A stretch of 64,000 nucleotides of DNA, from the NCBI GenBank assembly GCA_009836005.1, contig VXWG01000082.1, positions 5,017 through 69,016 of the forward strand, read 5' to 3'. The stretch is from Candidatus Palauibacter irciniicola (GTDB lineage Bacteria > Gemmatimonadota > Gemmatimonadetes > Palauibacterales > Palauibacteraceae). Positions 30,609 to 48,491 of the stretch are shown here, in pieces; position 1 is the stretch's first letter; every line of letters starts with the position of its first letter. Position numbers and translations under genes: made by a program. The notes beneath the pieces are model-generated. The model was not told the DNA's origin and made no database searches. It saw only the letters and a list, made by a program, of their open reading frames with translations.

Positions 30609-30913
30609 CGAACGAAGACACACATTGCAATCGCCGTGCCGCACCGTCGGCCGCCCGTCCGCCGTCTTTTCCGACAAAATGGCACTTGGGGGAGCCGCGC
30701 TCCGACATGGGGTGCCAAAGTGGCATGAAAAGGGACACGGTTGTGGCGCGGAACACGGGACGGGGTATGTTCTCCGGGCTCCCGTCGCCCCGAACCCTCA
30801 GCCGGAGTGCGCCGATGTCCCAGCTTTGGCAATGAGATTGCTAACTGGTTTGATCCGTGAGGGTTACGGGATTGACCGGTCGGACTCCCGGCGTTCGGTT
30901 CCCGCTGGTGGGC

Positions 30914-32077
30914 TCAGACTGCGGCCCTGCGGCGGTCTTCGAGCGCGGTCCTGAGTTGCGCCTCGTCGGCCTGCTGATAGCAGCGCAACACCGTCTTGGC
31001 CGACTTCCAGCCACCGAGTTCGCAGAGCACCTTGAGCGGCTGATGCATGAGATCGGACGCGAACTTTCGCCTGAGCGAGTGCCAGCCCCTCCCGCGCTTG
31101 GGCTCCAGTCCGGCGAGCGTCTCGGCCCTCTCCCACCAAGCGCGGACCAGCGAGCTTTTGACGCAGCTTGCGGGGTCCCTCGGCGACGGCATGACCGGGG
31201 CGTTTCCGCCCTTGGCGCTGCGCCGCCGCGCCATTTCGAGGACGGCGACCGCCTCGGCGGTCGCGGGCGTGCGGTGCTCGTATCCGGTCTTCTCGTGCTC
31301 GGCGCGCCACCGGATGGTCCTGCCCTCGAAGTCGATGTCCGACCAGCGAAGCTGCCGGACGGCCCCGATGCGGTGTCCGGTTTCGTGCGCGAGCACGAGC
31401 GCGACCCGGAACCGCCAGTTGACCTGCTTGGACGCCTTCAGCAGCGCCTGGTACTCGGCCTCGGAGAGAACGACCCGGACGGGGTTCTTCTCCGTGGGGA
31501 TCTTGAGTCCCCTGAACGGGTTCGCCACGAGGAGCGGGCGGCCGCGTTCGTCCTTGGACTTGGCCGCCCAGTTGAAGACCGCGATCAGGAACCTGAGGTC
31601 GCATTCGATCATGCGGTCCGACACGGGCCTTCCGCTCGGTCCGATCCTTCCCGAGCGCCGCGCGAGTATGAACCGGTCCCAGTCCCTCTGTGAGAGTGTC
31701 GCGGGATCGCGGTTCCGTCCGTAGAGCCCGAGGAACATCCTCATCGCGGTCCGGTCGTGGCGCTGCGTGTGGATGCCCTTGGTGGGCGTCACCTCTTCAC
31801 CGTAGATGTCAAAGAGCGTCTCCAACGTGAGCGGCCCGGGGTCGGCGTCCTTCTGCTTGCCGTTCGGCTCCGGCTTCGCGAACCCGGCGGCGGCCTCGTC
31901 GGCCTGCCGCTTCGCGCGCCTCCAGTCGCGGTGTTTGAGCGACCGGGTGAGCCTGCGCCCGTTTTCTCGCCACTCTATCTGGTAGAGGCCGGTCTTCGGG
32001 TCCGGAAACACCCTGACCCGGTTGCGGCCCCATTCTCCGGCGCTGTAGGAGCGCCTGTCACGTTTCGTGCGTGCCAT
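30914..32077 (-). CDS. int: Tyrosine-type site-specific integrase
   Basis: ATG at 32077 after GGAGAGGA. Catalytic contexts HETGHRIGAV, GWHSLRRKFASDL and TVLRCYQ (R..H.R..Y). Confidence 0.85.
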   Translation of the reverse strand: MARTKRDRRSYSAGEWGRNRVRVFPDPKTGLYQIEWRENGRRLTRSLKHRDWRRAKRQADEAAAGFAKPEPNGKQKDADPGPLTLETLFDIYGEEVTPTKGIHTQRHDRTAMRMFLGLYGRNRDPATLSQRDWDRFILARRSGRIGPSGRPVSDRMIECDLRFLIAVFNWAAKSKDERGRPLLVANPFRGLKIPTEKNPVRVVLSEAEYQALLKASKQVNWRFRVALVLAHETGHRIGAVRQLRWSDIDFEGRTIRWRAEHEKTGYEHRTPATAEAVAVLEMARRRSAKGGNAPVMPSPRDPASCVKSSLVRAWWERAETLAGLEPKRGRGWHSLRRKFASDLMHQPLKVLCELGGWKSAKTVLRCYQQADEAQLRTALEDRRRAAV

Positions 32078-32480
32078 CTTCCATTCCTCTCCGGATGATG
32101 GACTGCACGATCTGCTCGTTGGAAACATCGCGGCGGGCGGCGCTCTCCGCCAGTCGCGGGCCGGACGGCGCCTTGAGGGGCAGGTGCCGGCGCAAGATCC
32201 TGGGCGCGTTGGGCCTTCCGGCGTTGGGGATCTTGCCTTCCCGCACGAGGCGGCCCAGATGGTCCTTCGAGTATCCGCTCTCGTGAGCGGCTTCGACGAG
32301 CGAGAACGTGGTCTCGTCCTGCTCGCGCATCGTGGCTTCGAGGTCGTCGGCGCACCGCTCGATCGCGGTGGCCGGGGTCTCGCCCCCGTAGCGGCGGAGC
32401 GCCTTGGCCTGCTTGCGCCAGTCGGCGGGCAGGCCCTCGACGGACGCGGGCTCGTTCTTCTTTCGGTGCCTGCGGGTCAT
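32058..32480 (-). CDS. Excisionase-like HTH (HTH_17/MerR-type) DNA-binding protein
   Basis: ATG at 32480 overlaps the upstream stop (ATGA), with AGGAG 6 nt upstream. C-terminal FSLVEAAHESGYSKDHLGRLVREGKIP. Overlaps the int start by 20 nt. Confidence 0.5.
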   Translation of the reverse strand: MTRRHRKKNEPASVEGLPADWRKQAKALRRYGGETPATAIERCADDLEATMREQDETTFSLVEAAHESGYSKDHLGRLVREGKIPNAGRPNAPRILRRHLPLKAPSGPRLAESAARRDVSNEQIVQSIIRRGMEDGTHET

Positions 32481-32791
32481 TTCCATTCTCCTTGCCTATC
32501 CTGATGGAGCGCGTCGGCGAGGCCGGGATCGCCCTCGCCGCGCCGCACCGACCGTTCGGCGAGATCCACGCGCCGTCCGAGGTCGGCGAGCCCGGTGGTG
32601 CGGGCAACCGCGTAGATCGTGGCCGCGACCGTGGTGAGGGCGAGCGCGGCGTGCAGCGCGAGCGTGACGCCGTGTTCCGCGAGGATCCTTGGCCAGTGGG
32701 GCGAGAGGTATTCGAGGCGGGCACCGCCGATCAGGAACGCGGATCCGGCGAGTGCGGCGGTGAGTCCCGCGCTGATCTTCCAGGGCTGCAT
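32477..32791 (-). CDS. Small two-TM membrane protein, unknown function
   Basis: ATG at 32791 after GGAGAAACC. Two hydrophobic helices and a charged C-terminal tail. Confidence 0.4.
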   Translation of the reverse strand: MQPWKISAGLTAALAGSAFLIGGARLEYLSPHWPRILAEHGVTLALHAALALTTVAATIYAVARTTGLADLGRRVDLAERSVRRGEGDPGLADALHQDRQGEWK

Positions 32792-32810: not shown

Positions 32811-33698
32811 TCAGAGTTCGACTGAGGCGGGATCGCGGTCGGTCGGACCACGGAGCCAGGAGCCGTTGTCGCTGCCGAGGCCCAGCCTGCGGAGAAGCCC
32901 CGCCGCCGCGGGTCCGTTGGCGTGCAGGGCGAACCCGGCGGCGGCCTTGGCGCGGACGGTCGCCTCGCGGTAGCTGCCGGAGACGGCCTCGACGTTGACG
33001 CGGGCGGTCCGGCCGTCCGCGTCCTCGTATTCGATCTGGGCGTCCGGGTAGAGCACCCGGCCTTCTTCGTCGATGGGGAGCCCGAGTTCGCGCGCGATCC
33101 GGTGGCGCTCGGCGTCGGCGGCCCGTTTGCCGCGCTTCCGCGCGCCTTCGCTGGCGCGCGCGATCCTGCTCTTGAGTTCGGTGTCGAGGCGGACGCGCCG
33201 CACGGTGGCGCCCCTTGCTTCGAGCCGCTTCCGCTCGATCCGGCAGGCGCGGTGGATGGCGGTGTCGTGTGCGGCCTCGGCGGGCCGGACGCGGGCGAGC
33301 CGGATCTCCTGCCGGGGATCCATGCCGCGCTCGGCGGCGAGCTTCCGGGCCTCGGCCACGCCCTTGGGGGTGAGCGAGAGAACCTTGAACGGGTTGCCCT
33401 TCGGCCCGGTGGCCGCGTGCTCCTCGACCAGACCGTCCCGGATCCAGGCGTTCACGGCGCGGCGGGTGGTGAACGGGTGGCCGCCGAAGTGTACCTCGGC
33501 CAAGTCGCGGTAGGAGACCGCGCCGTGGACGCCGATGTCGGTCAGCGCCCCGGCGCAGCGGTCGGGGAAGGAGATGGACCCGCCGTCCCGGCCCGCGGCG
33601 TATTCTCGGCGATGGCCGTTCCGCATCCGAGCGCGATGGCTCGCGCGGCTGGGTGGCGCGGCGGAACGGGGGTCCGGTTCGGCCGTGCGGCCGAACAT
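32811..33698 (-). CDS. Replication-relaxation (Replic_Relax-like) winged-helix protein, copy 1
   Basis: ATG at 33698 after GAGGGAGAGAG. YRDLAEVHF...TTRRAVNAWIRDGLVEE looks like a winged helix. HDTAIH and YPDAQIEYED...VNVE segments are recalled from PF13814. Confidence 0.45.
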   Translation of the reverse strand: MFGRTAEPDPRSAAPPSRASHRARMRNGHRREYAAGRDGGSISFPDRCAGALTDIGVHGAVSYRDLAEVHFGGHPFTTRRAVNAWIRDGLVEEHAATGPKGNPFKVLSLTPKGVAEARKLAAERGMDPRQEIRLARVRPAEAAHDTAIHRACRIERKRLEARGATVRRVRLDTELKSRIARASEGARKRGKRAADAERHRIARELGLPIDEEGRVLYPDAQIEYEDADGRTARVNVEAVSGSYREATVRAKAAAGFALHANGPAAAGLLRRLGLGSDNGSWLRGPTDRDPASVEL

Positions 33699-33716
33699 CT
33701 CTCTCCCTCTCACGGA

Positions 33717-34751
33717 TCAGCGGCTCGGCCCGAAGCCGCGCTCGGGGACCGGGATCCTCGGCACGGGGACGACGATCCTCTGCGGTCCCTGCGCGGGCGT
33801 CCGGACGGCCGCCACGGCGACGGGGTCGCGTGCGGCCACGCGCTCGCGGTGCCGGTCGAGCACGAAGTCGGAGATCTTCTGCGCGTCGGCGGCCGCGCGC
33901 CGGATCTCGCGCGGGTCCTCCTCAAGCGCCTGGATCCAGCCCTCGACGTAGGCCGCGCCACGGCTCGGGTCGTGTCCGACCCCGACGCGCTCGCCGGTCA
34001 TCATCGCGCTGATCTCGGCCCTGAGCTCCTCGCGGGCGTACTGGGGCGAGCCGAACCCGCCGTCGATCCCCTCGATGAGCGTCTCGCGGTTCATCCGGTC
34101 CTTGTGCCCGGTGCTGTGGCCCAGCTCGTGGAGCGCGGTCTGGTAGTAGTGGTTCGCCGACGGGAACTGCCCCCGCTCGGGCAGCACGATCTCGTCGCGC
34201 TTCATGTGGTAGTAGGCGCGGTCGCCCTGGACGTGGCGGACCGGGACGCCAACGTCCTCCATGACCCGCTCGGCCTCCTGGTGCACCTTCCAGAGCGGCT
34301 CGGGCGTCGGGTTCGAGCGCTCGGGCAGCCCGTCGGCCTGCTCGGCGTTGAAGACGGTGTACTGGCGCACGAACGGCGCCTTGAGCTTCTCGTAGCGGTA
34401 GACCTTCCTGCCCTCGGCGTCCCTCCTCGGCCGACCCTGCTCGTCGGTCACGGCGATCCGCTTCCTGTCCTGGAAGGAGAGAATGCGCGTGCCGCGCTCG
34501 CCCTTCCTGACCTGTCCGCCGCGCGCCTGGATCTGGCGGTAGGTGCCCCAGCGCACGTCGCCGTAGCCCTGCTCCTGCTGGACGGAGGCGAGGTGCAGGC
34601 TGTTGCCGCCCCGGTAGGAGCGGTCGGTGTCCACGTTCATGGGCATCACGCGCTCGCCCGGCGCCCACGGCTTCTGCCACGGCGCGGTGCCCTGCCGGAT
34701 CTGCTCGATGATCGCATCGGCGAACCTGCGGTGGTATTCGTCGTGGTTCAT
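33717..34751 (-). CDS. ardC: ArdC-like antirestriction protein (ssDNA-binding N-domain plus zincin metalloprotease)
   Basis: APWQKPW and YRGGNSLHL N-domain motifs. HELGHSTGH metalloprotease motif. Confidence 0.8.
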   Translation of the reverse strand: MNHDEYHRRFADAIIEQIRQGTAPWQKPWAPGERVMPMNVDTDRSYRGGNSLHLASVQQEQGYGDVRWGTYRQIQARGGQVRKGERGTRILSFQDRKRIAVTDEQGRPRRDAEGRKVYRYEKLKAPFVRQYTVFNAEQADGLPERSNPTPEPLWKVHQEAERVMEDVGVPVRHVQGDRAYYHMKRDEIVLPERGQFPSANHYYQTALHELGHSTGHKDRMNRETLIEGIDGGFGSPQYAREELRAEISAMMTGERVGVGHDPSRGAAYVEGWIQALEEDPREIRRAAADAQKISDFVLDRHRERVAARDPVAVAAVRTPAQGPQRIVVPVPRIPVPERGFGPSR

Positions 34752-34954
34752 GCGTCCACCTCCTCGCCGCCGGCGCCGTGCGGGTCGTCCCAGGCGGCGA
34801 CGATCTCCTCATCGGTTCCCACGTCCTCGGGGAAGAGGCCGTACTCCTTGGCCAAGTAAGCCTCGACTTCGAGCGTGTCGCCGCTGTCGCGGGCGAGTTC
34901 GCGGTCGAAGTCCTCGAACGTCTCGACGCGGATCGTCGTGTCGTTGCATGTCAT
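34748..34954 (-). CDS. 68-aa hyper-acidic protein, unknown function
   Basis: ATGA overlaps at both ends (with virB11 and ardC). 21 Asp/Glu against 4 Arg/Lys, counted by hand. Confidence 0.45.
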   Translation of the reverse strand: MTCNDTTIRVETFEDFDRELARDSGDTLEVEAYLAKEYGLFPEDVGTDEEIVAAWDDPHGAGGEEVDA

Positions 34955-35958
34955 GCGTGCACCTCCTTCGGTGTGTGGGTCTTTGCTTCTTCGGGTAACT
35001 CGGCGGCCCCGCCCCAAACGGGCGCGGTCGCCCATCGTCCGGCGGCCGCGTCGTAGCCGCGCACTTCTAGCGCCTCCTCGACGAACCGGCGTCCCTCCCG
35101 GCGGGTCGTGTGCAGCACGAGCGCGATCCCGTCCACGACGCCCCGGCAGGTGACTTCCCAGGGCAGCGCGTCCCCCGCCTGCATGGCGCAACTGGCTAGG
35201 CGCGAGAGCGCGGACTTGGCGTTGTTGGCGTGGACGGTCGTGAGCGACCCGCCGTGTCCGGTGTTGAGGGCTTGAAGCAGATCGGCAGCCTCCGCGCCCC
35301 GGACCTCGCCGACGACGATGTGGTCGGGCCGGTGGCGGAGCGCGTGGCGCACCAGGTCGCGGATCGAGACGGGCGTGTCGTGGGTGGCTCCGGCCTCGAA
35401 CCGGAGGCAGTTGGCCCGGTCGATCCTCAGTTCGAGCGTGTCCTCGATGGCGACGATCCGCTCGTCTTCGGGCAGCAGTTCGATCAGCGCGTTGAGGAGC
35501 GTCGTTTTGCCCGATCCGGTGCCGCCGGATACGAGCACGTTGCGGCGGGCGAGCAGCGTCCGGCGGGCGGCTTCGAGGACCGGCTCCGGCAGCGAGCCCA
35601 TGCGCACGAGGTCCTCGGCGGAGAATGCCCTTCCCCCGAACCGGCGTATGGTGATGGCGACCTCGGGCGCGGCGGGCGGCGTGCAGATCGCGACCCGCGA
35701 CCCGTCACCGAGCCGGGCGTCCAGAACCGGCCTCGTAGCCGGATCGAGCCCGAGCGGCCGGGCGATGTGGATCGCCGCGCGGTGGAGCCAGGCGCCGGTG
35801 AGTCCGGGCGCCTCGTGGGGCTCCAGCTTCCCGGCCCGCTCGACCCAGACGTTCGCGGGTCCGTTGATCATGATCTCGGAGACCTCCGGGTCTTCGAGCA
35901 GGGACCCCAGGCCCGGAAGGAACGGGACGAGGTGGCCGACGCCGCTGGCGCGCTTCAT
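34951..35958 (-). CDS. virB11: VirB11/TrbB-family T4SS ATPase
   Basis: ATG at 35958 overlaps the coupling protein stop. EIMINGP, VLVSGGTGSGKTTLLNAL Walker A, IVVGEVRG and TGHGGSLTTVHA. Confidence 0.85.
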   Translation of the reverse strand: MKRASGVGHLVPFLPGLGSLLEDPEVSEIMINGPANVWVERAGKLEPHEAPGLTGAWLHRAAIHIARPLGLDPATRPVLDARLGDGSRVAICTPPAAPEVAITIRRFGGRAFSAEDLVRMGSLPEPVLEAARRTLLARRNVLVSGGTGSGKTTLLNALIELLPEDERIVAIEDTLELRIDRANCLRFEAGATHDTPVSIRDLVRHALRHRPDHIVVGEVRGAEAADLLQALNTGHGGSLTTVHANNAKSALSRLASCAMQAGDALPWEVTCRGVVDGIALVLHTTRREGRRFVEEALEVRGYDAAAGRWATAPVWGGAAELPEEAKTHTPKEVHA

Positions 35959-37988
35959 ATCCGGCCCTCCTCCCGGAGCCTCCAGTAGCCCGTCTCCCTC
36001 GGCAGGTAGTGGGGCTTCAGGTAGACGCGGGTGGCCGGAAGCGACTTCACGCCGTCGTACGGAAGACAGACGGCCTGGTAGTTGGCGAGCAGGGCGAACT
36101 CGCGGGGCGTGAACACCGGCTCGCTCTGGCGGCGGAACGACTTGCTCGCGCCGATGGAGCCGCGCCCGCCCCCGGCCCGGCCCGACAGGAGCGAGAACTC
36201 GGGTCTGCCCGTGGTCTCGGTGAACGTGTACGAGGCCCGCGTCTTCATGACGGAGCCGCACATTTCGGACGCGATCCGTGCGGAAGCCTCGTCGGAGAGC
36301 GACAGGAAGATCCGTGTCCGGAGCGTCTGGACGAGCGTGCGCCACGCCTCGCCCGAGGGGAGCACGGAGCGGAGCGAGGAGAGCGACTGCGTGGCGACGA
36401 TGGGGATGCACCGGCACTGCCGGGTCAGCGCGAACGCCTTCTCGTCGCCCGACGGGTCGTCCTGCCCCACGGTCGCAAAGGCTTGATACTCGTCACAGAT
36501 GAACACGGCGGGCCGCATGTAGCGGTCGGGTCGCCGCGCGGCCTCGGCCGGACGGCGGAGCAGCGCCTGGATCCACGCGTTCTTGAGGAGCACGCCGATG
36601 GCGCGTGCCAGCGCCGGGTTCGCCCCGGCGGGCATGTTGAGGGCCAGCACCTTGCCGCCCTCGATCAACTCGGAGAGCGGCGGCAGCCTACGGCGGAGGC
36701 CCGGCATGGGCGGGACTTCCGGGGACCTCTCCTCCTCGTCGCCGTCCGCCCGCCTGGGCGGGGCATCGTCCTTCGGGGGCGGCGGGCAGAACACGGCGGC
36801 CACGTCCGGCTGGTCGAAGAGCGAGAGGAAGACGCTGATCCCCTCGACGATCGAGGTGCGGAGCTTCGCGTCCAGCGCCGACCAGTCCTTGTCGTACCAC
36901 CGCTCGACGGCCTCGACCCGCTCGCGGAGTTCGCTACCGGCGGCTCCCTCGGGCTCCGTGGCGTAGGCGACCTTCAGTTCGGCGAGCCGCTCGCGGAGCG
37001 CGGGATCGAGCGGGTGGGCCGCCTTCCCCTCCTCCGGCAGCGCCCGCCAGTCCCAGTCTCCGAGCGCCTTGCGGTGCTTCGCGAGGTCCTTCCTCGCGAT
37101 GACGGCGCGAAGCGGGCACACGCGGTCGGCGAGCGCCCTGGCCTCGCCGATCTTTCCGGCCAGGAGGTCGCCGTCCACCGTGCAGCGGTACACGTCCTGG
37201 AGCGTGACCCAGCCCCCGGGCAGGAGCCGGTGGAGTTCCACGATCCACCGCACGAGGTTGGTGTACGCCTGTTGCCAGAAGGGATCCCTGCCCTTGCCGA
37301 AGAGCTGGTTGATGAGGGACGCCACGCCGTAGGCGAGCGAGTAGGAGTCGAGCAGCGGATCGTCGAGCGGGTTCCACCGCCACGAGCCGCCGAGCCCGAT
37401 TTCGAGGTAGTCGTCCGCGCGGTCCGCCTCGCCCAGGATGCTTCGCACCTGATGGCAGAAGTCGCCCTTGACTTCGAGCACGAGCGCCCCCGCGCGGCGC
37501 TTGGAATCGTCCGCCTGCCAGGAGAGAAGCTGGTGGGCGAACGGGTACATGCAGGCCGTCGTCTTGCCGGTGCCGACCGCCCCGACGGCGAGCACGCCGG
37601 TGTAGAGTCCCTTTTCGGGGACGACGAGCCAGGACGGCCGCTCGCTCTCCCGCGCAACGGTCGGGTGGTGCAGTTCGCCGACCACGACCGAGGGCGCTTC
37701 GTCTGCGGGCGAGTTGGGCCAGTCGGGCAGCCTGCCCCGTCTCTTGAACTGGAAGAGCGGCTGGAACCAGACCCGCCAGACCGAGATCGCGAGCGAGCCC
37801 GCGAGCACGACCAGGACGGCGGGCCACGCGTAGTGCCAGAGGCGGAGGACGGCGTACAGGCCCGGATCGTGCCATGCGATCAGGTTGAGGTACGGGTTCG
37901 CGTCCGGCGGCGGGAACGGCGCCTTGAGCGCCCGCGCGCCGACCGCGCCGACGGCGGCTCCGATGACGGCGAGCGTGGCGGACTTCAT
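35955..37988 (-). CDS. virD4: Type IV coupling protein (VirD4/TraG/TraD family)
   Basis: ATG at 37988. N-terminal TM helices, GAVGTGKTTACMYPF Walker A, and VFICDEYQAF Walker B context. Confidence 0.8.
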   Translation of the reverse strand: MKSATLAVIGAAVGAVGARALKAPFPPPDANPYLNLIAWHDPGLYAVLRLWHYAWPAVLVVLAGSLAISVWRVWFQPLFQFKRRGRLPDWPNSPADEAPSVVVGELHHPTVARESERPSWLVVPEKGLYTGVLAVGAVGTGKTTACMYPFAHQLLSWQADDSKRRAGALVLEVKGDFCHQVRSILGEADRADDYLEIGLGGSWRWNPLDDPLLDSYSLAYGVASLINQLFGKGRDPFWQQAYTNLVRWIVELHRLLPGGWVTLQDVYRCTVDGDLLAGKIGEARALADRVCPLRAVIARKDLAKHRKALGDWDWRALPEEGKAAHPLDPALRERLAELKVAYATEPEGAAGSELRERVEAVERWYDKDWSALDAKLRTSIVEGISVFLSLFDQPDVAAVFCPPPPKDDAPPRRADGDEEERSPEVPPMPGLRRRLPPLSELIEGGKVLALNMPAGANPALARAIGVLLKNAWIQALLRRPAEAARRPDRYMRPAVFICDEYQAFATVGQDDPSGDEKAFALTRQCRCIPIVATQSLSSLRSVLPSGEAWRTLVQTLRTRIFLSLSDEASARIASEMCGSVMKTRASYTFTETTGRPEFSLLSGRAGGGRGSIGASKSFRRQSEPVFTPREFALLANYQAVCLPYDGVKSLPATRVYLKPHYLPRETGYWRLREEGRI

Positions 37989-38286
37989 CGGCGCAGCCTC
38001 CTTCCTGAAAGGATCGCTGGCTGGGAGCGACCCCGTGCGGGGCGGAGGGGCGGGGTGTGAATCCACACCTCGGCCCGAACCCGCAACAGGCCCCGTGGGC
38101 CTGGGGTCGCTCCCAGCCCCGCCGAAGCGGCCCGACCGGCGACGCCCGGCCGGGGCGCGGCGGCGCAAGACGTTACGGCGTCTGCGGATGGCCGCCCACG
38201 TCCTTGTGAATCGCCGGACGCCTCGACTGTGAATCCGCCCCCCGTGTCGATTTCACGCCTCGGTGCGGCCCCAACTCGCCTGGCGG
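37989..38286. other. Repeat-rich non-coding gap, candidate oriT or operon-internal promoter
   Basis: 16-bp inverted repeat 38019-38034 / 38103-38118 encloses the GGTGTG-AATC-CACACC hairpin (38054-38069). GTGAATC occurs at 38057, 38206 and 38229, with an inverted GATTTCAC at 38249. Confidence 0.3.
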
Positions 38287-39225
38287 TCATCGGTAGCGGG
38301 CTCCTTGGAGGCGGATCGTCCGCCACGTGGCGGCGCGGCTCACCGATGCGCGCCCAGGTCCACGGCGCGCGCGGTTCTCCAGCGCGACGCTCCGCTTCAT
38401 GGCGGCCTGGAGGCCGCCGAACTCTTCGAGCACGTGGACCGCACCCTCGATGATCGCCCGCTCGATCCGGGCCAGCTCCTCGACCGTCCGGGCGTCCGGC
38501 TCGGCGGGGCCGGACCCCGCCTCGGCCCACCTGCGGATCACCCGCCCGGCCCGGTCGATCTCCTCCATCGTCCGGGCCGCGGCGACGATCTCGACGGCGC
38601 GGCCCTGCTTCCCGAGCGCGTCCCAGAGCCCCCGGTGCGCGGCGCCCCAAGAGCGGAGCGCGGTCGCGGTCTCGTGGCCCGGCTCGGCGTAGACGAACAC
38701 GGCGCGCGTCGAGTCGAGCGCCACGGGCAGCTTGACGGGGAAGAAGCGGCGCGTGTCCCCGGCCGCGCCCCGGTAGAGCCGCGACGGCAGCAGCGCGCGC
38801 CCGATGCCGAGCGCCTCGAACGCGGCGACCTTCTCGGGCTCGGTCGGGAGCCACGGCAGGTCCGCGTGCTCGACCACGTAGTCGAGCGAGAGCAGCCGCC
38901 TGAGCAGCACCTCGTTCGCGGCGGCGCGGCGGTGCCGGACGTGCTCGGCGCCGAGCGCCCGATAGACGCGCCGGGAGTAGATCCGGCACACGCGGCCGAT
39001 GCCCCGGAGGCCGGGGACGGTCTCCTCGGCGGCCAGCCCTTCGGCGATCAGCGCGTGGACGACGCGCCGCACCTGCTCCGGGTGCGCGCCCAGGAACCGC
39101 GCGCACTGCGCGCGGGTGAACACGCCGCTGTGGAGGCACACCAGCGCGATCCACTCGGCCTTCTTCCCCGTCCAGCCGAACGCCTCAAGCACCTTCTCTC
39201 GTCCGTTGAGGTGGTGGAGGGTCAT
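38287..39225 (-). CDS. Winged-helix protein, Replic_Relax-like, copy 2 (function unknown)
   Basis: ATG at 39225 overlaps the virB8 stop (ATGA). N-terminal FTRAQCARFLGAHPEQVRRVVHALIAEGL looks like a winged helix. Embedded between the T4SS genes and the coupling protein. Confidence 0.4.
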   Translation of the reverse strand: MTLHHLNGREKVLEAFGWTGKKAEWIALVCLHSGVFTRAQCARFLGAHPEQVRRVVHALIAEGLAAEETVPGLRGIGRVCRIYSRRVYRALGAEHVRHRRAAANEVLLRRLLSLDYVVEHADLPWLPTEPEKVAAFEALGIGRALLPSRLYRGAAGDTRRFFPVKLPVALDSTRAVFVYAEPGHETATALRSWGAAHRGLWDALGKQGRAVEIVAAARTMEEIDRAGRVIRRWAEAGSGPAEPDARTVEELARIERAIIEGAVHVLEEFGGLQAAMKRSVALENRARRGPGRASVSRAATWRTIRLQGARYR

Positions 39226-39896
39226 CGATCCTCCCCGCCGGTGACGAGCGCCCGGTCGGCCCGCATGTAAATGACGAGGAGACCCATCGGGTTGTGGACG
39301 ACAAGCTCGGGGGGAATCGAGTCCAGGAACTCGAACCGGAGCGAGAGCGACCAGCGTTCGCGCCGCAGCTCCTGCTCGCCCCGCAACTGCACGAGGTCGA
39401 AGTCCGCCGTCGCGCCGTGCGGCGGCTCGGGCGCGGGGTGGATGCGGAGCACGACCTGCTCGACCTCGGTCTCGGTGTCGGCGGTGCCCGCCGCGACGCT
39501 CGCGACCTCCGCGCCGTCCCTCTGGAACGCCGCGTTCGCCAGATCGGTCGAGAGGAACCGGAGGCTCCGCGTCCATTGCTCCTGGGCTGTGGCCCGGCGC
39601 CGCGAGTGGAAATCGTGGACGAACCGGTTCAGGAAGTATTTCGTCGTCGGATCGAGCGGATCCGCTTGGGCCGTTGCGGCCTCGTAGGCCAGCGCCTCGG
39701 CGCGGCCCACCTCGTCCACGCGGACCACGATGGGCTTGGGCGGCTCGGCGCCCGCGATCCTGAGCAGCAGGAAGACGCCAAGCACGATGCTTGCCGAAAG
39801 GAAGATCAGGATCGTCCTAAGCTTCCGGTTGGCCTGGACGGCCTCGCCCCAGATCTCCGCGTATTCGCGGCCCGCGTCACGGTCTCGTTTCATCAT
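39222..39896 (-). CDS. virB8: VirB8/TrbF-like T4SS inner-membrane protein
   Basis: Single N-terminal TM helix (ILIFLSASIVLGVFLLL) followed by a periplasmic domain with KYFLNRFVHDF. Size and position fit. Confidence 0.6.
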   Translation of the reverse strand: MMKRDRDAGREYAEIWGEAVQANRKLRTILIFLSASIVLGVFLLLRIAGAEPPKPIVVRVDEVGRAEALAYEAATAQADPLDPTTKYFLNRFVHDFHSRRRATAQEQWTRSLRFLSTDLANAAFQRDGAEVASVAAGTADTETEVEQVVLRIHPAPEPPHGATADFDLVQLRGEQELRRERWSLSLRFEFLDSIPPELVVHNPMGLLVIYMRADRALVTGGEDR

Positions 39897-39914
39897 CGGC
39901 TTACTCCTCGGAAG

Positions 39915-40904
39915 TCAGACGGGGGGCTTGGCGGGAGCGGCGGCCTTGCTCGCTCCCTGCATGACGAGCGCGACGAACCCGGACCCGGCGGAGCCGGAAC
40001 CGGAGACGAGCATCGAGGCGAGTTCGCCGACCTTGAGCCCGGCCATGAGGCCGGAGACGACGAGCGGCATGAGCACGACGGCCCAGAGCCAGAGCTCGAA
40101 CGGGTCCGCCGTGCCGGTGCCCATCAGGGCATCGGCGTAGGTCGTGATGTAGCCCATGCCGACGCCCATGAAGACCCTGAGCACCGCACCGGCCACGACG
40201 CCGTAGAGCGTGTAGACCATCATGGTCCGGAACCATCCCCAGAACAGGAACGAGAGCGGCTCGAAGAGCAGGAACGCGATGAACACGGGACCGAGCAGGA
40301 TCGCGATGGCGATCGCGACCTGAGCCCAAATCACCTGCGCGTAGGTGACGCAGAAGAGCGCCAGCAGGCAGACCACCAGCGAGGCGCCCATGACGAGCGT
40401 GATGAGCGAGGAGAAGATCACGGTCGCGCCCGAGGTCACGATGGATAGCAGGTTGCCGGTGGACCACGCCGCGCCCAGGTGCGCGGAGTAGGCCTGCACG
40501 AGCGCGGTCATCTCGGTGTAGCCCGCCGACACCACGTCGGAGAGGAACAGGTTCTGGAGCCAGATCCCGCCTCCGGCCACCATGGCCGGGAACGTGAGCC
40601 CGACGCCCGGGATTGGGACGACGTAGTAGTGGAGCAGCGTGCGGGGGATCGCGATCCCGATCACGAGCTTGACGATCTCCCACGGCTGGAACGTGCCGCT
40701 GAACGCGATCTTGAGCCCGGTCCAGGCGACCATCACGGCGGCGAGCCCGCCCCAGAGCTGGAGACCCAGCGCGTGAACGTCGGGCGCGGCTCCGCCTACG
40801 ACGGTGTCGAGCACCACGTCGAGGAAGCTCTTGAAGTCCTGAAGCTGGTCAGCCGGGATCTGGGCCGGGACGTTGGGGTCGATGGACTGCGGGGGCAGTT
40901 GCAT
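39915..40904 (-). CDS. virB6: VirB6/TrbL-like polytopic T4SS membrane protein
   Basis: At least six hydrophobic helices, 329 aa, located between the TrbJ-like and VirB8-like genes. Confidence 0.65.
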   Translation of the reverse strand: MQLPPQSIDPNVPAQIPADQLQDFKSFLDVVLDTVVGGAAPDVHALGLQLWGGLAAVMVAWTGLKIAFSGTFQPWEIVKLVIGIAIPRTLLHYYVVPIPGVGLTFPAMVAGGGIWLQNLFLSDVVSAGYTEMTALVQAYSAHLGAAWSTGNLLSIVTSGATVIFSSLITLVMGASLVVCLLALFCVTYAQVIWAQVAIAIAILLGPVFIAFLLFEPLSFLFWGWFRTMMVYTLYGVVAGAVLRVFMGVGMGYITTYADALMGTGTADPFELWLWAVVLMPLVVSGLMAGLKVGELASMLVSGSGSAGSGFVALVMQGASKAAAPAKPPV

Positions 40905-40916
40905 GGCCGTGCGCCC

Positions 40917-41813
40917 CTACCGGTAGAACGAGGGGACGCGGAACAGGAGTCCGTCGCGGAGCGCGGCCCGGTTCAGCGAGGCCGCGTTCCGCATCGTCCC
41001 GGCGAGCGCGTTCGCGCGCGCCCGACCGTCGTGCCAGCGGCCAAGCCATTCGAGGTGGGCGAGTTCGGCCTGTCGCGCACGGCTCGCCTCCATTGCCGTC
41101 TGATGGGCGAGCACCTGGCCGAGGGCCGCGTTGATGCGGCCCTGGCTCAGCGAGGCCGCCACCCCGGCCTGCTGGAGGGCCGTGTTGGACAAGTTCCCAT
41201 TCGCGGTGAGGTCGCCGAACGAGCCTTGCGCGCTCTCGATGGTCCCGGCGAGCGCCGCCGCCGCGTCGAGGGCCGCGTAGTCGAGCACGCGCTGCCGGTC
41301 GGCAGCCTCACGGGCGCGGCGGTGGTCCTCCAGCGCGCGCGTCGCCGCTTGGGGCGGAAGGTTCGCAAACAGAGCGAGGATGTCGGCATCCGACACCCGG
41401 TCGGCGGCGTTGTGGGCGGTGCGCCAGTGTCGCGTGAACGAGCGTCCGCTGCCCATTCTCCGGACGGCGTCTACCGTGCCTCGCGCCGGGCCGGTGAAGT
41501 CCGAGCGCCAGCCGAGTCCGTCGCGCACGAGGCCGACGGGGTCGGCGGCGAGCCGGGAGAACGGCTGGAGCAGCGCGTCGATCTCGCCCTTGGCGGCGCG
41601 CTCCATGTGGTCGAGCTGATCTTCGAGTTCCGTAAGCTGGCGGGCCATCGACCGGATCTGGGTGACCTGGTGCGAGATCTGCGTGATCTGGTTCGCGATG
41701 ATCGTGGCCCGCTGGAACCAGCTCCCGAAGTCGAACTGCGCGCTCGCGGGACGAGCGCCCGCTAGGAGCAGGATCGGGACGAGAAGCGCGGAGGCGAGGA
41801 TGCGGTGGCGCAT
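40917..41813 (-). CDS. TrbJ/VirB5-like secreted coiled-coil protein
   Basis: ATG at 41813. Signal peptide ending in ASAQ, then an ANQITQISHQVTQIRSMARQLTELEDQL coiled coil. Confidence 0.5.
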   Translation of the reverse strand: MRHRILASALLVPILLLAGARPASAQFDFGSWFQRATIIANQITQISHQVTQIRSMARQLTELEDQLDHMERAAKGEIDALLQPFSRLAADPVGLVRDGLGWRSDFTGPARGTVDAVRRMGSGRSFTRHWRTAHNAADRVSDADILALFANLPPQAATRALEDHRRAREAADRQRVLDYAALDAAAALAGTIESAQGSFGDLTANGNLSNTALQQAGVAASLSQGRINAALGQVLAHQTAMEASRARQAELAHLEWLGRWHDGRARANALAGTMRNAASLNRAALRDGLLFRVPSFYR

Positions 41814-41829
41814 GGGGAAGTCCTTTCTC

Positions 41830-43071
41830 TTATCGGTGTGTCGGAGGGGTGGGGACGAGGACATCGGAGGTGAACCAGATGCGGAGCCGGTGCCCGGCGC
41901 GGATCGTGATCTCGGGCAGCCGGTTCAGATACCGGTCCAGCATCGAGGTGGCGCTGCCTCCGAGCCCTTGCCCGACGCCTGCCCGGAGTCCGTATGGCGA
42001 GGCTCCGGCGAGCGTGAGCCCGCTCAGCGCGCCGACCGCTCCGGCGGCGGCGAACGTCGAGCGGTAGCGCCGGTTCACTTGGTCGCGGAGCGCGCTCTCG
42101 CCCACCTGGTTCAGGCCGGTGAACTCAAGGTCCACCCAGCTTCCATCGGGGAGCAGCAAACGGTGGAACGCGACGGCGAGGCGGCTCTGGTCGCGGTTCT
42201 GGACGGCCCGCGCCGTGCCGACGACGCGCGCCCCGCGCGGAATCAGCACGCGCTGGCGGTCGGCCGAATAGAGCGGCGCCGACACCAAGGCGAGCACCGG
42301 GCCGGGGAACTCCCCCGACAACTGGGTGACGAGCACCGCCTCAAGGAACGTCCCTTCGTGGATGCGTTCCCAGCCCGGCGGGTCATGCGGCCGGACCAAA
42401 CGGCCCGGCTCGGAGGTGCGCGGCGCGGCGGGAACCTCCGTCCGCGGTGCCGGACCGCCCGCGCCGGGCGCGAACTCTCCTGCGGCCAGCCCGGCCGCCA
42501 TCTCGGCTTCGAGGGCGACGAGGGACTGCCCAAGAGACGCAAGCGCCCCGTCGAGTGCCGCGTCGGGAGACTCGGGCGCCACGGGAGACGCCGCCGCATC
42601 GGTGGATCCGTTCGGATCCCGGTGCGACTGCGCGACGGGGAAGGAGCGGAGCGAGCGCGTCCTGCGCTCGACCTCCTCCAGCCGGAGCGCCTCGCGCAAC
42701 TCGAACTCGGCGCGGCCCATGCCGGGGGCTCGGCCGCCTGCGCCGTCATTCGCCCCGGCGGATCCGGCGCCGGAGGGAGCTCCGGCCGCGCTGTCCGCCG
42801 GATCGTCGCGGGAATCGGCTGCGGCCCGTTGCGTCTCGCGCTGCGTCTCGTCGCGGATGCCCGCATCGAACGACCGGCCCTCCCGGTCGTTCACCGCCCG
42901 CGGCTGCACCGGCGCTCCGGCGGCGGTGGCGTCTTCACCGGGACCGGCGAGCGACGACGAGAACAGCAGTCCGGCGACCAGCACGGCGATCAGGACGACC
43001 CCCGCCTTCGTGACCATGCCGCCCGGAAGCGCGCCCTTCGGCTCCTTCACCAACCGCTTCCAGAGGCTCAT
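41830..43071 (-). CDS. virB10: VirB10/TrbI-like T4SS protein
   Basis: ATG at 43071 overlaps the virB9 stop. TM helix, Pro/Ala-rich linker, and a C-terminal barrel with VLIPRGARVVG and LLLPDGSWVDL. Confidence 0.8.
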   Translation of the reverse strand: MSLWKRLVKEPKGALPGGMVTKAGVVLIAVLVAGLLFSSSLAGPGEDATAAGAPVQPRAVNDREGRSFDAGIRDETQRETQRAAADSRDDPADSAAGAPSGAGSAGANDGAGGRAPGMGRAEFELREALRLEEVERRTRSLRSFPVAQSHRDPNGSTDAAASPVAPESPDAALDGALASLGQSLVALEAEMAAGLAAGEFAPGAGGPAPRTEVPAAPRTSEPGRLVRPHDPPGWERIHEGTFLEAVLVTQLSGEFPGPVLALVSAPLYSADRQRVLIPRGARVVGTARAVQNRDQSRLAVAFHRLLLPDGSWVDLEFTGLNQVGESALRDQVNRRYRSTFAAAGAVGALSGLTLAGASPYGLRAGVGQGLGGSATSMLDRYLNRLPEITIRAGHRLRIWFTSDVLVPTPPTHR

Positions 43072-43946
43072 CTCGAACCCTCCCGGGGCTCGAACCGCCA
43101 CCTGGCCCGTCGGTCGCCGATCTGGAGCCACCCGTCGCCCACCACGCGATGCAGGATGTAGAGGCCGCCTCCGGCGAGCTGAACGGGGACGACCGCGGGC
43201 TCGCCGTCCCTCAGCTCGTACACCCCGAACGACTCCTCGCGACCCGAGCGGATGTAGGTGAACTTGCCGTCGTGCCACATCGCCTCGACCAGGAACGGCC
43301 GCCGGGTGGCCGCGCGGTCAAGGCGGTACTCGAACGCAATGCGTGTGGGATACTCGGCGCGGAGCGCCTCGATCTCCGCTTCGGCTCGCCGGCGGGCCTC
43401 GACGATCCCCGCCTCGGCTTGTTCCTGTGCGCGGCGCGCGGCTTCGGCCGCCTCGGCCGCCATTTCGCGATAGGCGGAGACTTCGCTCCGGGCGACGAAC
43501 CCGGGAGCGCCGGACGGGGTCTCCCCCTCCGCTCCGGCTTCGACGCGCACGATCAGGTGGGGCGGCTTCTCCCCGTCTTCATGGACGAGGAACGAGTAGA
43601 TGCGCCCGGATTCGCAGACGAGCGCAACATTGGTCGCCGCGTCCTCGGCCAGCGGCTTCAGGTACGCGACGTTCGCCGCGCCGGTCAGGTGCCAGTACTC
43701 GGAGTCGCCGGCCACGAAGTCGAGGATCCGCTCCCCGGCCGGAAGCACGATGACCGTGGTGTGGCGCACGCGCGCGCGGAGCCGGGGGATCCGCTCTTCG
43801 CCTTCCTCCGGCACCGGCACGCGCAGGTAGGCGGCATCGCCTTTGGCTTGCTGCGCGGCGGCATCGCAGGGAACCACGGCCAGAAGCAGCGTCAGCAGCA
43901 CGACGACGATCCCCAGCAGGATCGCTGCGGTCGGAGTTGCTTTCAT
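43068..43946 (-). CDS. virB9: VirB9/TrbG-like T4SS outer-membrane core protein
   Basis: Signal sequence, TTVIVLPAGERILDFVAGDSEYW and YLKPLAEDAATNVALV motifs. Confidence 0.7.
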   Translation of the reverse strand: MKATPTAAILLGIVVVLLTLLLAVVPCDAAAQQAKGDAAYLRVPVPEEGEERIPRLRARVRHTTVIVLPAGERILDFVAGDSEYWHLTGAANVAYLKPLAEDAATNVALVCESGRIYSFLVHEDGEKPPHLIVRVEAGAEGETPSGAPGFVARSEVSAYREMAAEAAEAARRAQEQAEAGIVEARRRAEAEIEALRAEYPTRIAFEYRLDRAATRRPFLVEAMWHDGKFTYIRSGREESFGVYELRDGEPAVVPVQLAGGGLYILHRVVGDGWLQIGDRRARWRFEPREGSR

Positions 43947-43950
43947 GGTG

Positions 43951-46392: not shown

Positions 46393-46694
46393 TTCGAGTC
46401 CGTCCGGATGCGGAGATGCCAGGGCTCGTCGGCCCACTTGCCCGGATCGAAGCGTGCCGGATAACGCGCCGCCGCGCGGAGCACCGCCAGCATGGCCGGG
46501 TCCCTCCGGCCCGCGAGCCAGCCCGCGCCGTAGCAACCCGCGAACACCATGCCGCCCGCCACCAGCGAGGCCGTCGCGTTCCACACCGCGACCGCGAGCG
46601 TCGCGCCCAGCAGGAACAGCCGCCGCTCCACGCCCAGCACGGTGAGCGGACGGTTGAGTGCTGCGTAACCGGCCCAGCGCCCGAGGCCCCGCAT
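46389..46694 (-). CDS. virB3: VirB3/TrbD-like protein
   Basis: 101 aa. LNRPLTVLGVERRLF motif and two TM helices. Lies immediately upstream of virB4. Confidence 0.7.
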   Translation of the reverse strand: MRGLGRWAGYAALNRPLTVLGVERRLFLLGATLAVAVWNATASLVAGGMVFAGCYGAGWLAGRRDPAMLAVLRAAARYPARFDPGKWADEPWHLRIRTDSK

Positions 46695-46981
46695 CAGAAT
46701 AGCCAGCCGAGGAAGTTCACCGCGCCCACGGCCATCCCGATCCCGAAGATGATCCCGGCCAGCGTGCGCTTGCTCCCGCCCTCGCCGAACGCGAACATCA
46801 GCCCGCCCACGACGATCGCGATCAGCGACAGCCCCCGAGCGATCGGTCCCGTGAACTGCGTCTGTAGCTCGTTCACCGCGTCCACCCAAGGACTCGTGCC
46901 CTGCGCATGGAGCGCGCCGGGCGTCAGCATGAGCAGCACGGCCCACGCGGCTCCCCGCATCGTTGTTAGCAACGTTCTCAT
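46694..46981 (-). CDS. virB2: VirB2/TrbC-like conjugative pilin
   Basis: 95 aa. Signal peptide ending in ALHAQ and two hydrophobic helices. First structural gene of the operon. Confidence 0.7.
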   Translation of the reverse strand: MRTLLTTMRGAAWAVLLMLTPGALHAQGTSPWVDAVNELQTQFTGPIARGLSLIAIVVGGLMFAFGEGGSKRTLAGIIFGIGMAVGAVNFLGWLF

Positions 46982-47268
46982 GTCTTCTTCTCCCTGGTCT
47001 CCCGGTTTCCGTTGCCGCCGGGACGACCCCGTCCCGGCTCGACCGATGGATCCCCCGAAGAACGGTCCCGTCCGTTGGCGCGCTCCCAGTCCGCCATGAA
47101 CGCCAGAGCCCGGTCCACCGTCGCCAGCCGCGGCGAACGGCCCCGCCTCAGGTCGCCCCAGAAGCTCCGGTCGCCGACCGCGCGCTGTCCGAACTCGGAC
47201 GGCGACATCGCCGCGTCCCGAATGAACGCCGAAATGCGCCGCTCGAACCACCTCGTCAGGTTCTCCAT
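46978..47268 (-). CDS. Small putative HTH regulator heading the T4SS operon
   Basis: 96 aa. MSPSEFGQRAVGDRSFWGDLRRGRSPRLATVDRAL is HTH-like. ATGA overlap with virB2. Confidence 0.4.
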   Translation of the reverse strand: MENLTRWFERRISAFIRDAAMSPSEFGQRAVGDRSFWGDLRRGRSPRLATVDRALAFMADWERANGRDRSSGDPSVEPGRGRPGGNGNRETREKKT

Positions 47269-48335: not shown

Positions 48336-48460
48336 CGCGCCACCCGCGAGCTGGGTCCCGTCGCGGCGGGAGATGGGCCGCTTGCTCCACGGGCATCGGA
48401 GCGGGCATCTTTCGGGCGCTTGAGTTGGTCGCCAGTCCCGGAACGCAACGGCACTCCCCG

Positions 48461-48478: not shown

Positions 48479-48491
48479 ATTGCCAAGGACG

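Follow-up and report, generated by a model that had tools for sequence, protein, structure and literature searches.

The 64,000-nucleotide stretch of Candidatus Palauibacter irciniicola DNA analyzed here (hereafter, the window; contig VXWG01000082.1) carries, between ~30.8 and 48.4 kb, an element of ~17.6 kb that consists of one long minus-strand gene array plus a divergent S24 gene and encodes, among others, a VirB-type type IV secretion system (T4SS), a VirD4-type coupling protein and a tyrosine integrase. An earlier note on this DNA, made from the sequence alone, had remarked that the element has no recognizable relaxase and had singled out two of its open reading frames (ORFs), here called P1 and P2, as possible replacements. 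With reading frames chosen by third-position GC in a window of ~70% G+C, both ORFs turned out to be real, strongly conserved minus-strand genes, with third-position GC of at least 0.89 from the proposed ATG and lower values upstream of it. P1 and P2 very probably form the DNA-processing module of the element, and the 298-bp gap that follows P2 is a strong candidate for a DNA-processing site. The argument turns on the following features:

32811-33698, minus strand: P1, 295 aa
35955-37988, minus strand: VirD4-type coupling protein (Pfam TraG-D_C and TrwB_AAD_bind), immediately 3' of P2 and the gap
37989-38286: non-coding gap of 298 nt between the end of P2 and the start of virD4 (37988)
38287-39225, minus strand: P2, 312 aa

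Search for classical relaxases

No ORF of the element matched a relaxase family in scans of Pfam and NCBIfam (E <= 1 or E <= 0.01), in agreement with the earlier remark. Specifically, the families of the HUH relaxases of types MOBF, MOBP, MOBQ and MOBV (TrwC, Relaxase, MobA_MobL, Mob_Pre) were unmatched by P1, P2 and the other ORFs, as was Rep_trans (MOBT), and, with respect to relaxases of the tyrosine-recombinase type (TcpM, MobK, MpsA), the only Phage_integrase match in the element was the terminal integrase at 30914-32077. The HUH fold is also absent from the AlphaFold2 models of P1 and P2, each of which combines a winged helix with an alpha/beta domain, and no HUH protein was returned by the fold searches. 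For P1 and P2 themselves, Pfam, NCBIfam, PHROGs and PADLOC gave no family above noise (for P2, weak helix-turn-helix (HTH) matches only), and tblastn found no homologue of either protein among 72,556 plasmids. A relaxase hidden in the two large genes at 48420-63145 was considered as well and rejected, as these encode LRR/Big and cadherin/FN3 surface proteins. Both families are large, strongly conserved and wholly unannotated in Gemmatimonadota (Longimicrobiales, Candidatus Palauibacter).

It could be argued that neither P1 nor P2 processes transfer DNA, that is, that the T4SS secretes proteins or that the relaxase is encoded elsewhere in the genome, and the lack of a direct relaxase match in the element, together with homologues that are all unannotated, would fit such a view. 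However, the integrase, the S24 repressor, ArdC, the coupling protein and the diverged copies at multiple sites fit a self-transmissible element, the P1 family has members above the Pfam threshold of a MOBC-type family (below), and the P1/P2 pair is linked to T4SS and type IV coupling protein (T4CP) genes also in plasmid-like contigs. We consider this alternative very improbable.

P1 and the Replic_Relax family

The PF13814 (Replic_Relax) proteins are the MobC of CONJscan, and PF13814 corresponds in Pfam to the MOBC relaxases (PMC5357655); the family has a PD-(D/E)XK fold (PMC3424549). MOBC is a non-HUH relaxase class of the PD-(D/E)XK type that has been known since 2009-2013 (PMC3424549, PMC12857230). 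The replication-relaxation-like character that the earlier note ascribed to the two proteins stands, with the correction that PF13814 lies within the MOB classification, as MOBC.

The P1 gene starts 18 nt past the ArdC stop and is preceded by a Shine-Dalgarno-like run, GAGGGAGAG. At 90% identity, its family numbers at least 720 clusters; a profile search that covered 1.84 billion representative proteins gave 991 at 50% identity. PF13814 was matched by eight of 58 diverse full-length P1 relatives. The relative P0328 (38% identity to P1 across 232 aa, E 1e-30) scored 30.7 bits, above the Pfam gathering cut-off of 25.3; its match runs from position 1 to position 171 of the 191-position profile and spans both the winged helix and the nuclease domain. 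The "replication-relaxation family protein" that holds the TraX position on pTEF1 (a pAD1-like plasmid of MOB-suite type MOBC) scored 28.5 bits, and the P1 family thus comes as near to the Pfam model as does the studied relaxase branch. By this transitive homology, P1 appears to belong to the Replic_Relax/MOBC family as a divergent member.

The AlphaFold2 model of P1 (predicted local distance difference test (pLDDT) 87, predicted template modeling score (pTM) 0.80) shows a winged helix at ~44-123 and a PD-(D/E)XK-like domain at ~139-271 with the element order alpha-beta-beta-beta-alpha-beta (helix 139-161, strand 165-171, strands 220-225 and 231-239, helix 245-253, strand 257-260); two inserted helices lie between strand 165-171 and strand 220-225. 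The long helix bears H144-D145, strand 2 is preceded by P218-D219, strand 3 bears E237, and the helix after it bears K251. Ten residues, i.e., H144, D145, E174, P218, D219, E223, E237, Y243, K251 and G255, are invariant among 14 relatives that are 25-45% identical. The two segments that the earlier note had picked out, HDTAIH and PD...E.D, are indeed present, within AAHDTAIH at 142-149 and YPDAQIEYED at 217-226. Topology and motif positions suggest that the C-terminal domain is of the PD-(D/E)XK type, and the residue set looks catalytic, as would be expected of an active enzyme. A peculiarity of P1 is E-x-V where phage and plasmid Replic_Relax members have E-x-D, next to the additional invariant residues Y243 and K251. 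In the close family, the recognition helix of its winged helix (R79, A81, V82, W85) does not vary. With this helix and a complete nuclease-like residue set, P1 is the proposed nicking member of the pair.

Both termini of P1 are conserved and predicted to be disordered. The N-terminus (residues 1-40; 33580-33698) is basic, and the strongly conserved C-terminal tail (residues 279-295; 32811-32860) reads GSWLRGPxDRDPAxVEL, with DRDPAxVEL at its end and the terminal EL still present in the consensus of ~30%-identical relatives. Either end might serve as a peptide that docks on VirD4 or P2, or else as a signal for secretion. Searches of solved structures with P1 were dominated by its winged helix: Foldseek against PDB returned winged-helix matches (MarR/PadR regulators), and the sequence search MarR-type winged helices only. 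We also considered P1 as a defence nuclease or as a partner of ArdC, and rejected both roles; PADLOC gave no match, and P1-like genes lie inside the T4SS/T4CP operons of relatives.

P2 and its predicted fold

P2 is translationally coupled to virB8, as had been noticed earlier, its start overlapping the virB8 stop as ATGA. The database entries P0140 and P0215 (532 aa) carry VirB8 (PF04335) and P2 as one fused protein, probably as a result of the ATGA overlap or of frameshifts in their contigs. The P2 family comprises at least 2929 clusters at 90% identity. In the AlphaFold2 model (pLDDT 82.8, pTM 0.74), P2 opens with a winged helix (~9-91), continues with an alpha/beta domain (~104-217) and is helical at the C-terminus, so that the winged-helix start attributed to both proteins on sequence grounds is borne out by the models and by Foldseek, which matches the region to MarR/PadR regulators.

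The top Foldseek match of P2 in BFVD was gp146 of Bacillus phage G (E 2.1e-4, probability 1.0, 254 columns; template modeling (TM) scores 0.47/0.52, root-mean-square deviation (rmsd) 7.4 A), followed by other matches of ~275 aa; a phage JL protein and A7KUX4 were likewise among the best, full-length matches. gp146 is a PF13814 protein (89 bits) in PHROG 9381, "replication initiation by nicking", and its record notes similarity to SPO1 gp27.3. This phage family has been linked by HHpred to CloDF13 MobC, and its gene adjoins a gene for a VirD4-like translocase (PMC3357382). The likeness to PF13814 suggested by the earlier note was found along two indirect routes, for P1 transitively through P0328 and for P2 by predicted fold, whereas neither protein matches the model directly; the fold search pointed to a PF13814 protein in BFVD for P2, whereas PDB gave only winged-helix regulators for both proteins.

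P2 differs from P1 in what its family keeps. Across 19 P2-like sequences that are 21-61% identical, D115 and E129 are the only invariant polar residues, and the PD...(D/E)xK-like catalytic set (H ... PD ... ExD/ExK) is not kept. The gp146 family has the motifs H134 ... RPD174 ... FFE191-I-D193-LGTE (only 7 gp146 homologues were found, too few for a useful profile), for which hand alignment gives RFFP-[VL]-K and FVY179-A-[ED]-PGH as the counterparts in P2. On this manual motif alignment, P2 would lack the PD aspartate, with V or L in its place in this lineage, and would have a tyrosine at the first acidic position of strand 3. Similarity between P1 and P2 covers the winged helix only, i.e., ~47-61 residues (BLASTP 28% identity, E 5e-5; hhalign E 1.6e-4 to 2.7e-3). 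Calling them two copies, as was done at first, is too strong. Nor are they equivalent candidates: P1 keeps the catalytic-looking set, and P2 has two acidic residues plus the proposed specificity for the gap described next.

Short repeats and inverted repeat in the gap

The 298-nt gap, which is kept in ~80 related loci, contains two kinds of repeated sequence, a short motif in four copies and a large inverted repeat:

38256-38246, minus strand: motif site 0, GTGAAATCGAC, inverted orientation
38235-38227, minus strand: motif site 1, GATTCACAG, direct
38212-38204, minus strand: motif site 2, GATTCACAA, direct
38019-38118, minus strand: structured inverted repeat of ~100 nt, arms GGCTGGGAGCGACCCC (38118-38103) and GGGGTCGCTCCCAGCC (38034-38019), with two hairpins inside
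38103-38087, minus strand: hairpin 1, within the inverted repeat
38069-38054, minus strand: hairpin 2, within the inverted repeat, holding the fourth, palindromic motif copy, GGTGTGGATTCACACC
37997-38014, minus strand: small hairpin ATCCTTtcagGAAGGAGG, in which an anti-Shine-Dalgarno sequence pairs with the Shine-Dalgarno sequence of virD4

Across loci, the core of the motif is either TTCAC (27 loci) or TGCGC (34 loci), all copies switching jointly, and P2 residues 47, 49, 51 and 55 foretell the type with near perfection (mutual information 0.89-0.99 of a possible 0.99 bits), A-H-P-E-Q..R-R-[VGA] going with TTCAC and T-H-H-E-R..R-R-[ML] with TGCGC. For comparison, the best column elsewhere reached 0.66 in sm2 (a 96-aa protein encoded at the start of the operon; 18 loci), 0.60 in VirD4, 0.59 in Int, 0.51 in P1 and 0.32 in VirB8. 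The four P2 residues lie at or just before the predicted third helix of the P2 winged helix (49-61), the third helix being the usual recognition helix of this type of domain. The two motif types do not represent deep clades, with P2 identity of 0.72 between types and 0.74-0.78 within them and with unsplit flanking genes. Further, the 8-mer, and even the 6-mer TGTGAA, is found nowhere else in the 17.6-kb element outside the gap. Because the P2 residues co-vary with the motif and the motif is confined to the gap, there is strong, if indirect, evidence that P2 binds these predicted sites.

The inverted repeat shows a different pattern of conservation. In a set of 43 distinct arm pairs, hardly any variation affects the core AGCGACCC/GGGTCGCT, and four positions outside it change in a compensatory manner (GC, TA, CG and AT pairs, as in GGT/ACC, GCT/AGC, TGG/CCA and GCA/TGC). 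The z-score of its single-stranded DNA fold is -3.7, and no Rfam family matched the gap. We propose that the inverted repeat is the core of the transfer origin (oriT) and also the region of the nick site. The core and its spacing recur in L084 (GGGAGCGACCCC...GGGGTCGCTCCC at 5566-5666, with AGGTAAGGGACG three times after it) and L082 (459-553, followed by four copies of another repeat), two distant loci that were reached by P1 homology alone. In both, the inverted repeat is intergenic, beside Int, RepA or ParA genes and away from virD4, which argues for a cis-acting DNA site and not for a leader RNA of virD4.

Metagenome contigs were scanned for the pattern AGCGACCCC-N55-80-GGGGTCGCT and nothing else; 120 loci were returned, many of them by chance, and only the linkage to P2-like genes was used, not the raw count. 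A P2-like ORF was present in 18 of these loci, with the inverted repeat 94-218 bp past the P2-like stop in 17 of the 18 and a P1-like ORF immediately upstream of the P2-like one in 13. Such distant modules have element-specific short repeats of their own between the P2-like gene and the inverted repeat, e.g., GTTCCGGG x 3 or ATTCTCGG. In L090, L091, L110, L143 and L195, the pattern is an unrelated chance match, AGCGACCCC-N78-GGGGTCGCT, of 96 nt in a seemingly conserved coding gene on contigs of ~48% GC.

Alternatively, P2 might be a mere transcription factor of the virD4-...-int operon and the gap its operator plus a 5' leader or attenuator RNA, with the origin elsewhere and P1 as the sole relaxase. 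The MarR/PadR-type regulators that are the only solved-structure fold matches of P2 would be expected under this hypothesis, as would the position of the gap directly 5' of virD4 and its ending in the hairpin ATCCTTtcagGAAGGAGG, which varies in a compensatory way across loci (CCTT/AAGG vs. CCCT/AGGG, read by eye) and may control virD4 translation. The type B hairpins also tolerate G.T(U) wobble on the mRNA-sense strand, and P2 may be kept in the short derivatives described below for control of int expression. Yet the inverted repeat of L082 and L084 lies by ParA, Int and RepA and not 5' of virD4, and in L086 the P2-like gene overlaps virD4, which leaves no room for a leader. Short repeats beside a large inverted repeat are the layout of a proven MOBC origin, the conserved part of P2 extends for 220 residues past the winged helix, and its fold aligns with that of nicking proteins over ~254 columns. 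The absence of a predicted sigma-70-like promoter or intrinsic terminator in the gap points the same way, albeit weakly in this host phylum. On balance, we regard a purely regulatory P2 as rather improbable.

Gene linkage and short derivatives

The full gene order is kept in ~45 Longimicrobiales loci, often in several copies per genome. The P1/P2 pair is not peculiar to this element and recurs in more distant settings: L083 encodes VirB8, a 98-aa protein, P1-like (33%), P2-like (29%), a 69-aa protein and VirD4; L084, a plasmid-like contig with RepA_C, primase and ParA, has P2-like (46%) then VirD4, and ArdC then P1-like (47%); the chromosomal element L086 has VirB8, P2-like (36%), VirD4, VirB11, a 71-aa protein, ArdC and P1-like (49%); and in L082 the P1-like gene lies directly 5' of VirB2-B3-B4. 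The order ArdC then P1-like is kept in L084, L086 and L087, and the P2-like gene adjoins VirD4 in L083, L084, L086 and in loci that resemble integrative mobilizable elements (IMEs). In distant integrative and conjugative elements (ICEs) and plasmid-like contigs, the P1-like gene is thus accompanied by a P2-like one and, wherever the flanks are long enough, by VirD4. Since L084 has its own RepA_C and primase, P1 is unlikely to act as a vegetative replication initiator there.

Eight short loci of ~4-6 kb form a distinct P2 clade and contain no T4SS, ArdC or P1. They have the order sm2-P2-gap-VirD4-Int (L055, L066, L070, L073, L075) or sm2-P2-gap-Int (L071, L074, L076), with sm2 kept directly upstream of P2 in all of them, and the full element was also seen, among the loci fetched, in five of the eight genomes. 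They look like mobilizable deletion derivatives of the ICE, i.e., candidate IMEs.

These derivatives bring in a further alternative, namely that P2 is itself an atypical relaxase of the Replic_Relax fold, with a remodelled active site, which, in the manner of TraX, binds the repeats and nicks the inverted repeat. The role of P1, in that case another nuclease, would be a different one, e.g., in recipient processing, in replication of the excised circle or in assisting ArdC. The make-up of the derivatives is the chief argument for P2 as the relaxase, but it agrees equally with a hitchhiker that retains its type-specific parts (P2, the P2 sites, in some cases the coupling protein) and relies on others for the constant ones (P1, the pore). 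Without P1, the minimal derivatives have the classical layout of MOBC mobilizable elements, i.e., relaxase, oriT, coupling protein and integrase (PMC5357655), and it is P2, not P1, that adjoins VirD4 and the inverted repeat in nearly all relatives. The site layout of P2 also mirrors that of TraX (PMC12857230), and its fold matches phage MOBC-like proteins. What speaks against P2 as the nickase is that D115 and E129 are all that remains invariant among its polar residues, when the P1 family keeps the full set; that P1-like genes stand beside P2-like ones in 13 of 18 independent loci plus L083, L084 and L086, as parts of the same machine would; and that P1 could be supplied in trans in the five genomes with a full element. 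We consider this alternative unlikely.

A proposed split relaxosome and its relation to known systems

We favor, at about an even chance of being right, the hypothesis of a split MOBC-type relaxosome, in which P1 nicks, P2 provides origin specificity and the origin lies at ~38019-38256. Under this hypothesis, the winged helix of P2 would bind the short repeats in the gap directly downstream of its own gene, and the repeats, in their two specificity types, would set which element's origin gets recognized. P1 would make a strand-specific nick in or beside the ~100-nt inverted repeat AGCGACCCC...GGGGTCGCT, the presumed oriT core, which lies ~90-140 bp from the first three repeats. The resulting nucleoprotein complex would be passed to VirD4, encoded immediately downstream, and then to the VirB-type T4SS. 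Short derivatives would supply the origin and the specificity protein themselves and depend on a resident full element for P1 and the pore. A more specific, previously undescribed version has two Replic_Relax proteins of the same fold dividing the work between them, P2 having lost the nuclease site, with a recognition helix that evolves fast along with the repeats of the origin, and P1 retaining the nuclease site plus a constant DNA-reading head directed at the almost invariant inverted-repeat core; this we hold tentatively, at somewhat less than an even chance.

Several observations weigh against the split, and they concern both proteins and the site. P1 itself has no direct match to PF13814 in the Pfam scan at E <= 1, and profile-profile comparison of P1 with the gp146 family or with TraX gave nothing significant, even with cropped C-terminal domains. 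P2 has no PF13814 match in the Pfam scan either; its sequence search of solved structures was empty, its Foldseek search of PDB returned winged-helix MarR/PadR regulators only, and hhalign of P2 with the gp146 family, a TraX homologue and the P1 family aligned the winged helix only or was non-significant. P2 is thus tied to PF13814 by fold only, and the fold link appears moderate (TM ~0.5, rmsd 7.4 A). The anti-Shine-Dalgarno hairpin suggests that part of the gap acts as RNA, and the G.T wobble on the sense strand of the type B hairpins means that the structure might form in RNA and not in the transferred DNA. In L086, where there is no gap, no inverted repeat was found in the 21-kb locus, and thus the origin is not always beside P2. 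Finally, short derivatives with P2 and without P1 fit P2 as the relaxase at least equally well.

The closest parallel to the proposed split relaxosome is the MOBC system of TraX of Enterococcus faecalis pAD1/pTEF1 and of CloDF13 MobC (the latter was not used as a reference sequence, as the mob region of its RefSeq record is poorly annotated and seemingly frameshifted). TraX has an N-terminal winged helix, through which it binds five direct repeats 70-120 bp from nic, and a restriction-endonuclease-like active site (PMC12857230). Like P1 and, to judge from its predicted fold, P2, these MOBC proteins are ~250-300 aa long, combine a winged helix with a PD-(D/E)XK-type domain without HUH, and are encoded next to a VirD4-type coupling protein gene. 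The TraX origin combines a large inverted repeat with a nearby series of short repeats, a layout seen in the window as well (inverted repeat at 38118-38019, short repeats at 38256-38204 and 38069-38054, between P2 and virD4). On pTEF1, the region from the coupling protein gene to the TraX homologue holds TTAGGCATACCT as a direct repeat of 12 bp in five copies, beside a compound inverted repeat of ~142 bp whose arms of 18 and 25 nt have 100% complementarity. According to Francia and Clewell (2002), pAD1 and pAM373 reportedly share the inverted repeat, with differing short repeats setting relaxase specificity. The element differs from the TraX and MobC systems in having two proteins instead of one, with the catalytic set kept in P1 and the winged helix of P2 tracking the repeats, in that neither protein directly matches PF13814, and in its setting, i.e., an integrative element with a tyrosine integrase and a VirB-type T4SS in a diderm Gemmatimonadota host.

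Other systems share parts of the arrangement. The phage Replic_Relax proteins (phage G gp146, SPO1 gp27.3, 0305phi8-36 orf200), whose own function in phages is putative, are the best full-length fold matches of P2, but no sequence similarity between them and P1 or P2 was detected, and their H...PD...ExD...E set is missing from P2. Class-8 streptococcal IMEs encode a VirD4 coupling protein, a PF13814/MOBC relaxase and an integrase (PMC5357655), and the sm2-P2-gap-VirD4-Int derivatives follow the same compact module logic, with the differences that the streptococcal elements have a serine integrase and a direct PF13814 match, whereas the derivatives have a tyrosine recombinase and retain a P2 without the catalytic motif set. 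An auxiliary relaxosome protein is a small, sequence-specific DNA binder that recruits the nicking enzyme to the origin (PMC12857230), and the division of labour proposed here, a specific DNA binder plus a nicking enzyme, resembles that of NikA/NikB of R64 and PcfF/PcfG of pCF10. Unlike these auxiliaries, which are mostly ribbon-helix-helix proteins unrelated to the relaxase, P2 would be a full-length partner with a relaxase-family-like predicted fold.

Extent, gene content and copies of the element

The remaining genes of the element are, in order of position:

30914-32077, minus strand: tyrosine integrase (Pfam Phage_integrase, E 2e-19), at the element end, start set by homologues
32058-32486, minus strand: HTH_17-like protein
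between the HTH_17-like gene and P1, minus strand: small membrane protein
33717-34751, minus strand: ArdC, single-stranded-DNA-binding N-terminal domain plus zincin protease (Pfam ArdcN, MPTase-PolyVal)
between ArdC and VirB11, minus strand: 68-aa protein
between the gene for the 68-aa protein and VirD4, minus strand: VirB11
39222-46981, minus strand: T4SS operon, from Pfam matches, synteny kept in ~45 loci, with the next eight genes
39222-39896, minus strand: VirB8
39915-40904, minus strand: VirB6
40917-41864, minus strand: 315-aa protein, no assignment
41830-43071, minus strand: VirB10
43068-43946, minus strand: VirB9
43951-46584, minus strand: VirB4
46389-46694, minus strand: VirB3
46694-46981, minus strand: VirB2
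46978-47268, minus strand: sm2, 96 aa, without family match, first gene of the long operon
47574-48335, plus strand: S24 (LexA/CI-like) repressor (Pfam Peptidase_S24), divergent from the transfer operon, marking the right end

In comparison with related loci, the copies in other genomes lose similarity to the window at ~30813-30900 and at ~48337. A 9-bp direct repeat, TCCCGTCGC, at 30780-30788 and 48356-48364 would bound an element of ~17.6 kb and is a possible core of the attachment (att) site, but the evidence is weak because a chance 9-mer match is not unlikely in such GC-rich DNA; a search for direct repeats of at least 12 bp between the two element ends found none. On one side, the element is flanked by chromosomal genes (DnaK, HtrA, trigger factor) and on the other by two plus-strand genes for surface proteins, one of 1247 aa (48420-52163; LRR, Big and leishmanolysin-like domains) and one of 3599 aa (52346-63145; cadherin, FN3 and Calx-beta domains). 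The sequence beyond the S24 gene varies between loci. In L001-L003, similarity to the window runs past the S24 gene into the gene for the 1247-aa protein, to the ends of the fetched loci, and in this sub-lineage the surface-protein genes could be cargo or mark a shared insertion site.

The S24 repressor gene, divergent from a transfer operon that begins with sm2, forms a layout resembling SOS-inducible ICE control. Control of this kind operates in ICEs such as SXT. The ardC gene lies ~3.3 kb from the proposed origin, on its virD4 side, and if transfer starts there toward virD4, ardC would enter the recipient early, like the anti-restriction genes in the leading regions of plasmids.

Multiple copies are a recurrent feature. 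Five or more diverged copies, inserted at different sites and with P2 69-75% identical to that of the window, occur in individual Longimicrobiales genomes, as on OZ220479.1 (L059, L061, L062, L065, L067) and also in CBDBPR010000004.1, CBDCMR and OZ242324.1. In L014, L019, L042 and L044, two integrase genes face each other, which suggests tandem insertion or hot spots. Contigs assigned to other phyla, i.e., L024 (a Dehalococcoidia metagenome-assembled genome (MAG)), L025 and L038 (a Thermoanaerobaculia MAG), L029 (Acidobacteriota) and L031 and L032 (Vicinamibacteraceae), encode P2 proteins 72-75% identical to that of the window and VirB8 proteins up to 96% identical; these are either mis-binned short contigs or cases of recent cross-phylum transfer.

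Implications

In conclusion, the element is best regarded as the carrier of a strongly diverged form of an already known class of relaxase and not of a new class of enzyme. To our knowledge, MOBC relaxases are the least understood class, and we know of no solved structure, no sighting of a covalent intermediate and no explanation of the hand-over to the coupling protein. Our results would add to this class a large unannotated branch that Pfam, and probably the MOB typing tools too, fail to detect (such elements will likely be recorded as having a T4SS without a relaxase), and would provide a natural experiment that seemingly separates origin recognition from cleavage. They also give a concrete, testable origin, with exact repeats, two specificity types with their matching P2 residues, and an inverted repeat with an invariant core. 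The arrangement is widespread beyond Gemmatimonadota, judging from the 991 P1 clusters and from the modules of P1-like gene, P2-like gene and inverted repeat in diverse metagenomes. If the split holds true, hitchhiking elements would move with only the specificity half and the origin, and sometimes the coupling protein, using the universal nickase of a resident element, and the small integrase-bearing islands that share these genomes would be explained as mobilizable derivatives. In sponge-associated Longimicrobiales, where a genome holds several copies, such elements are probably important carriers of gene flow.

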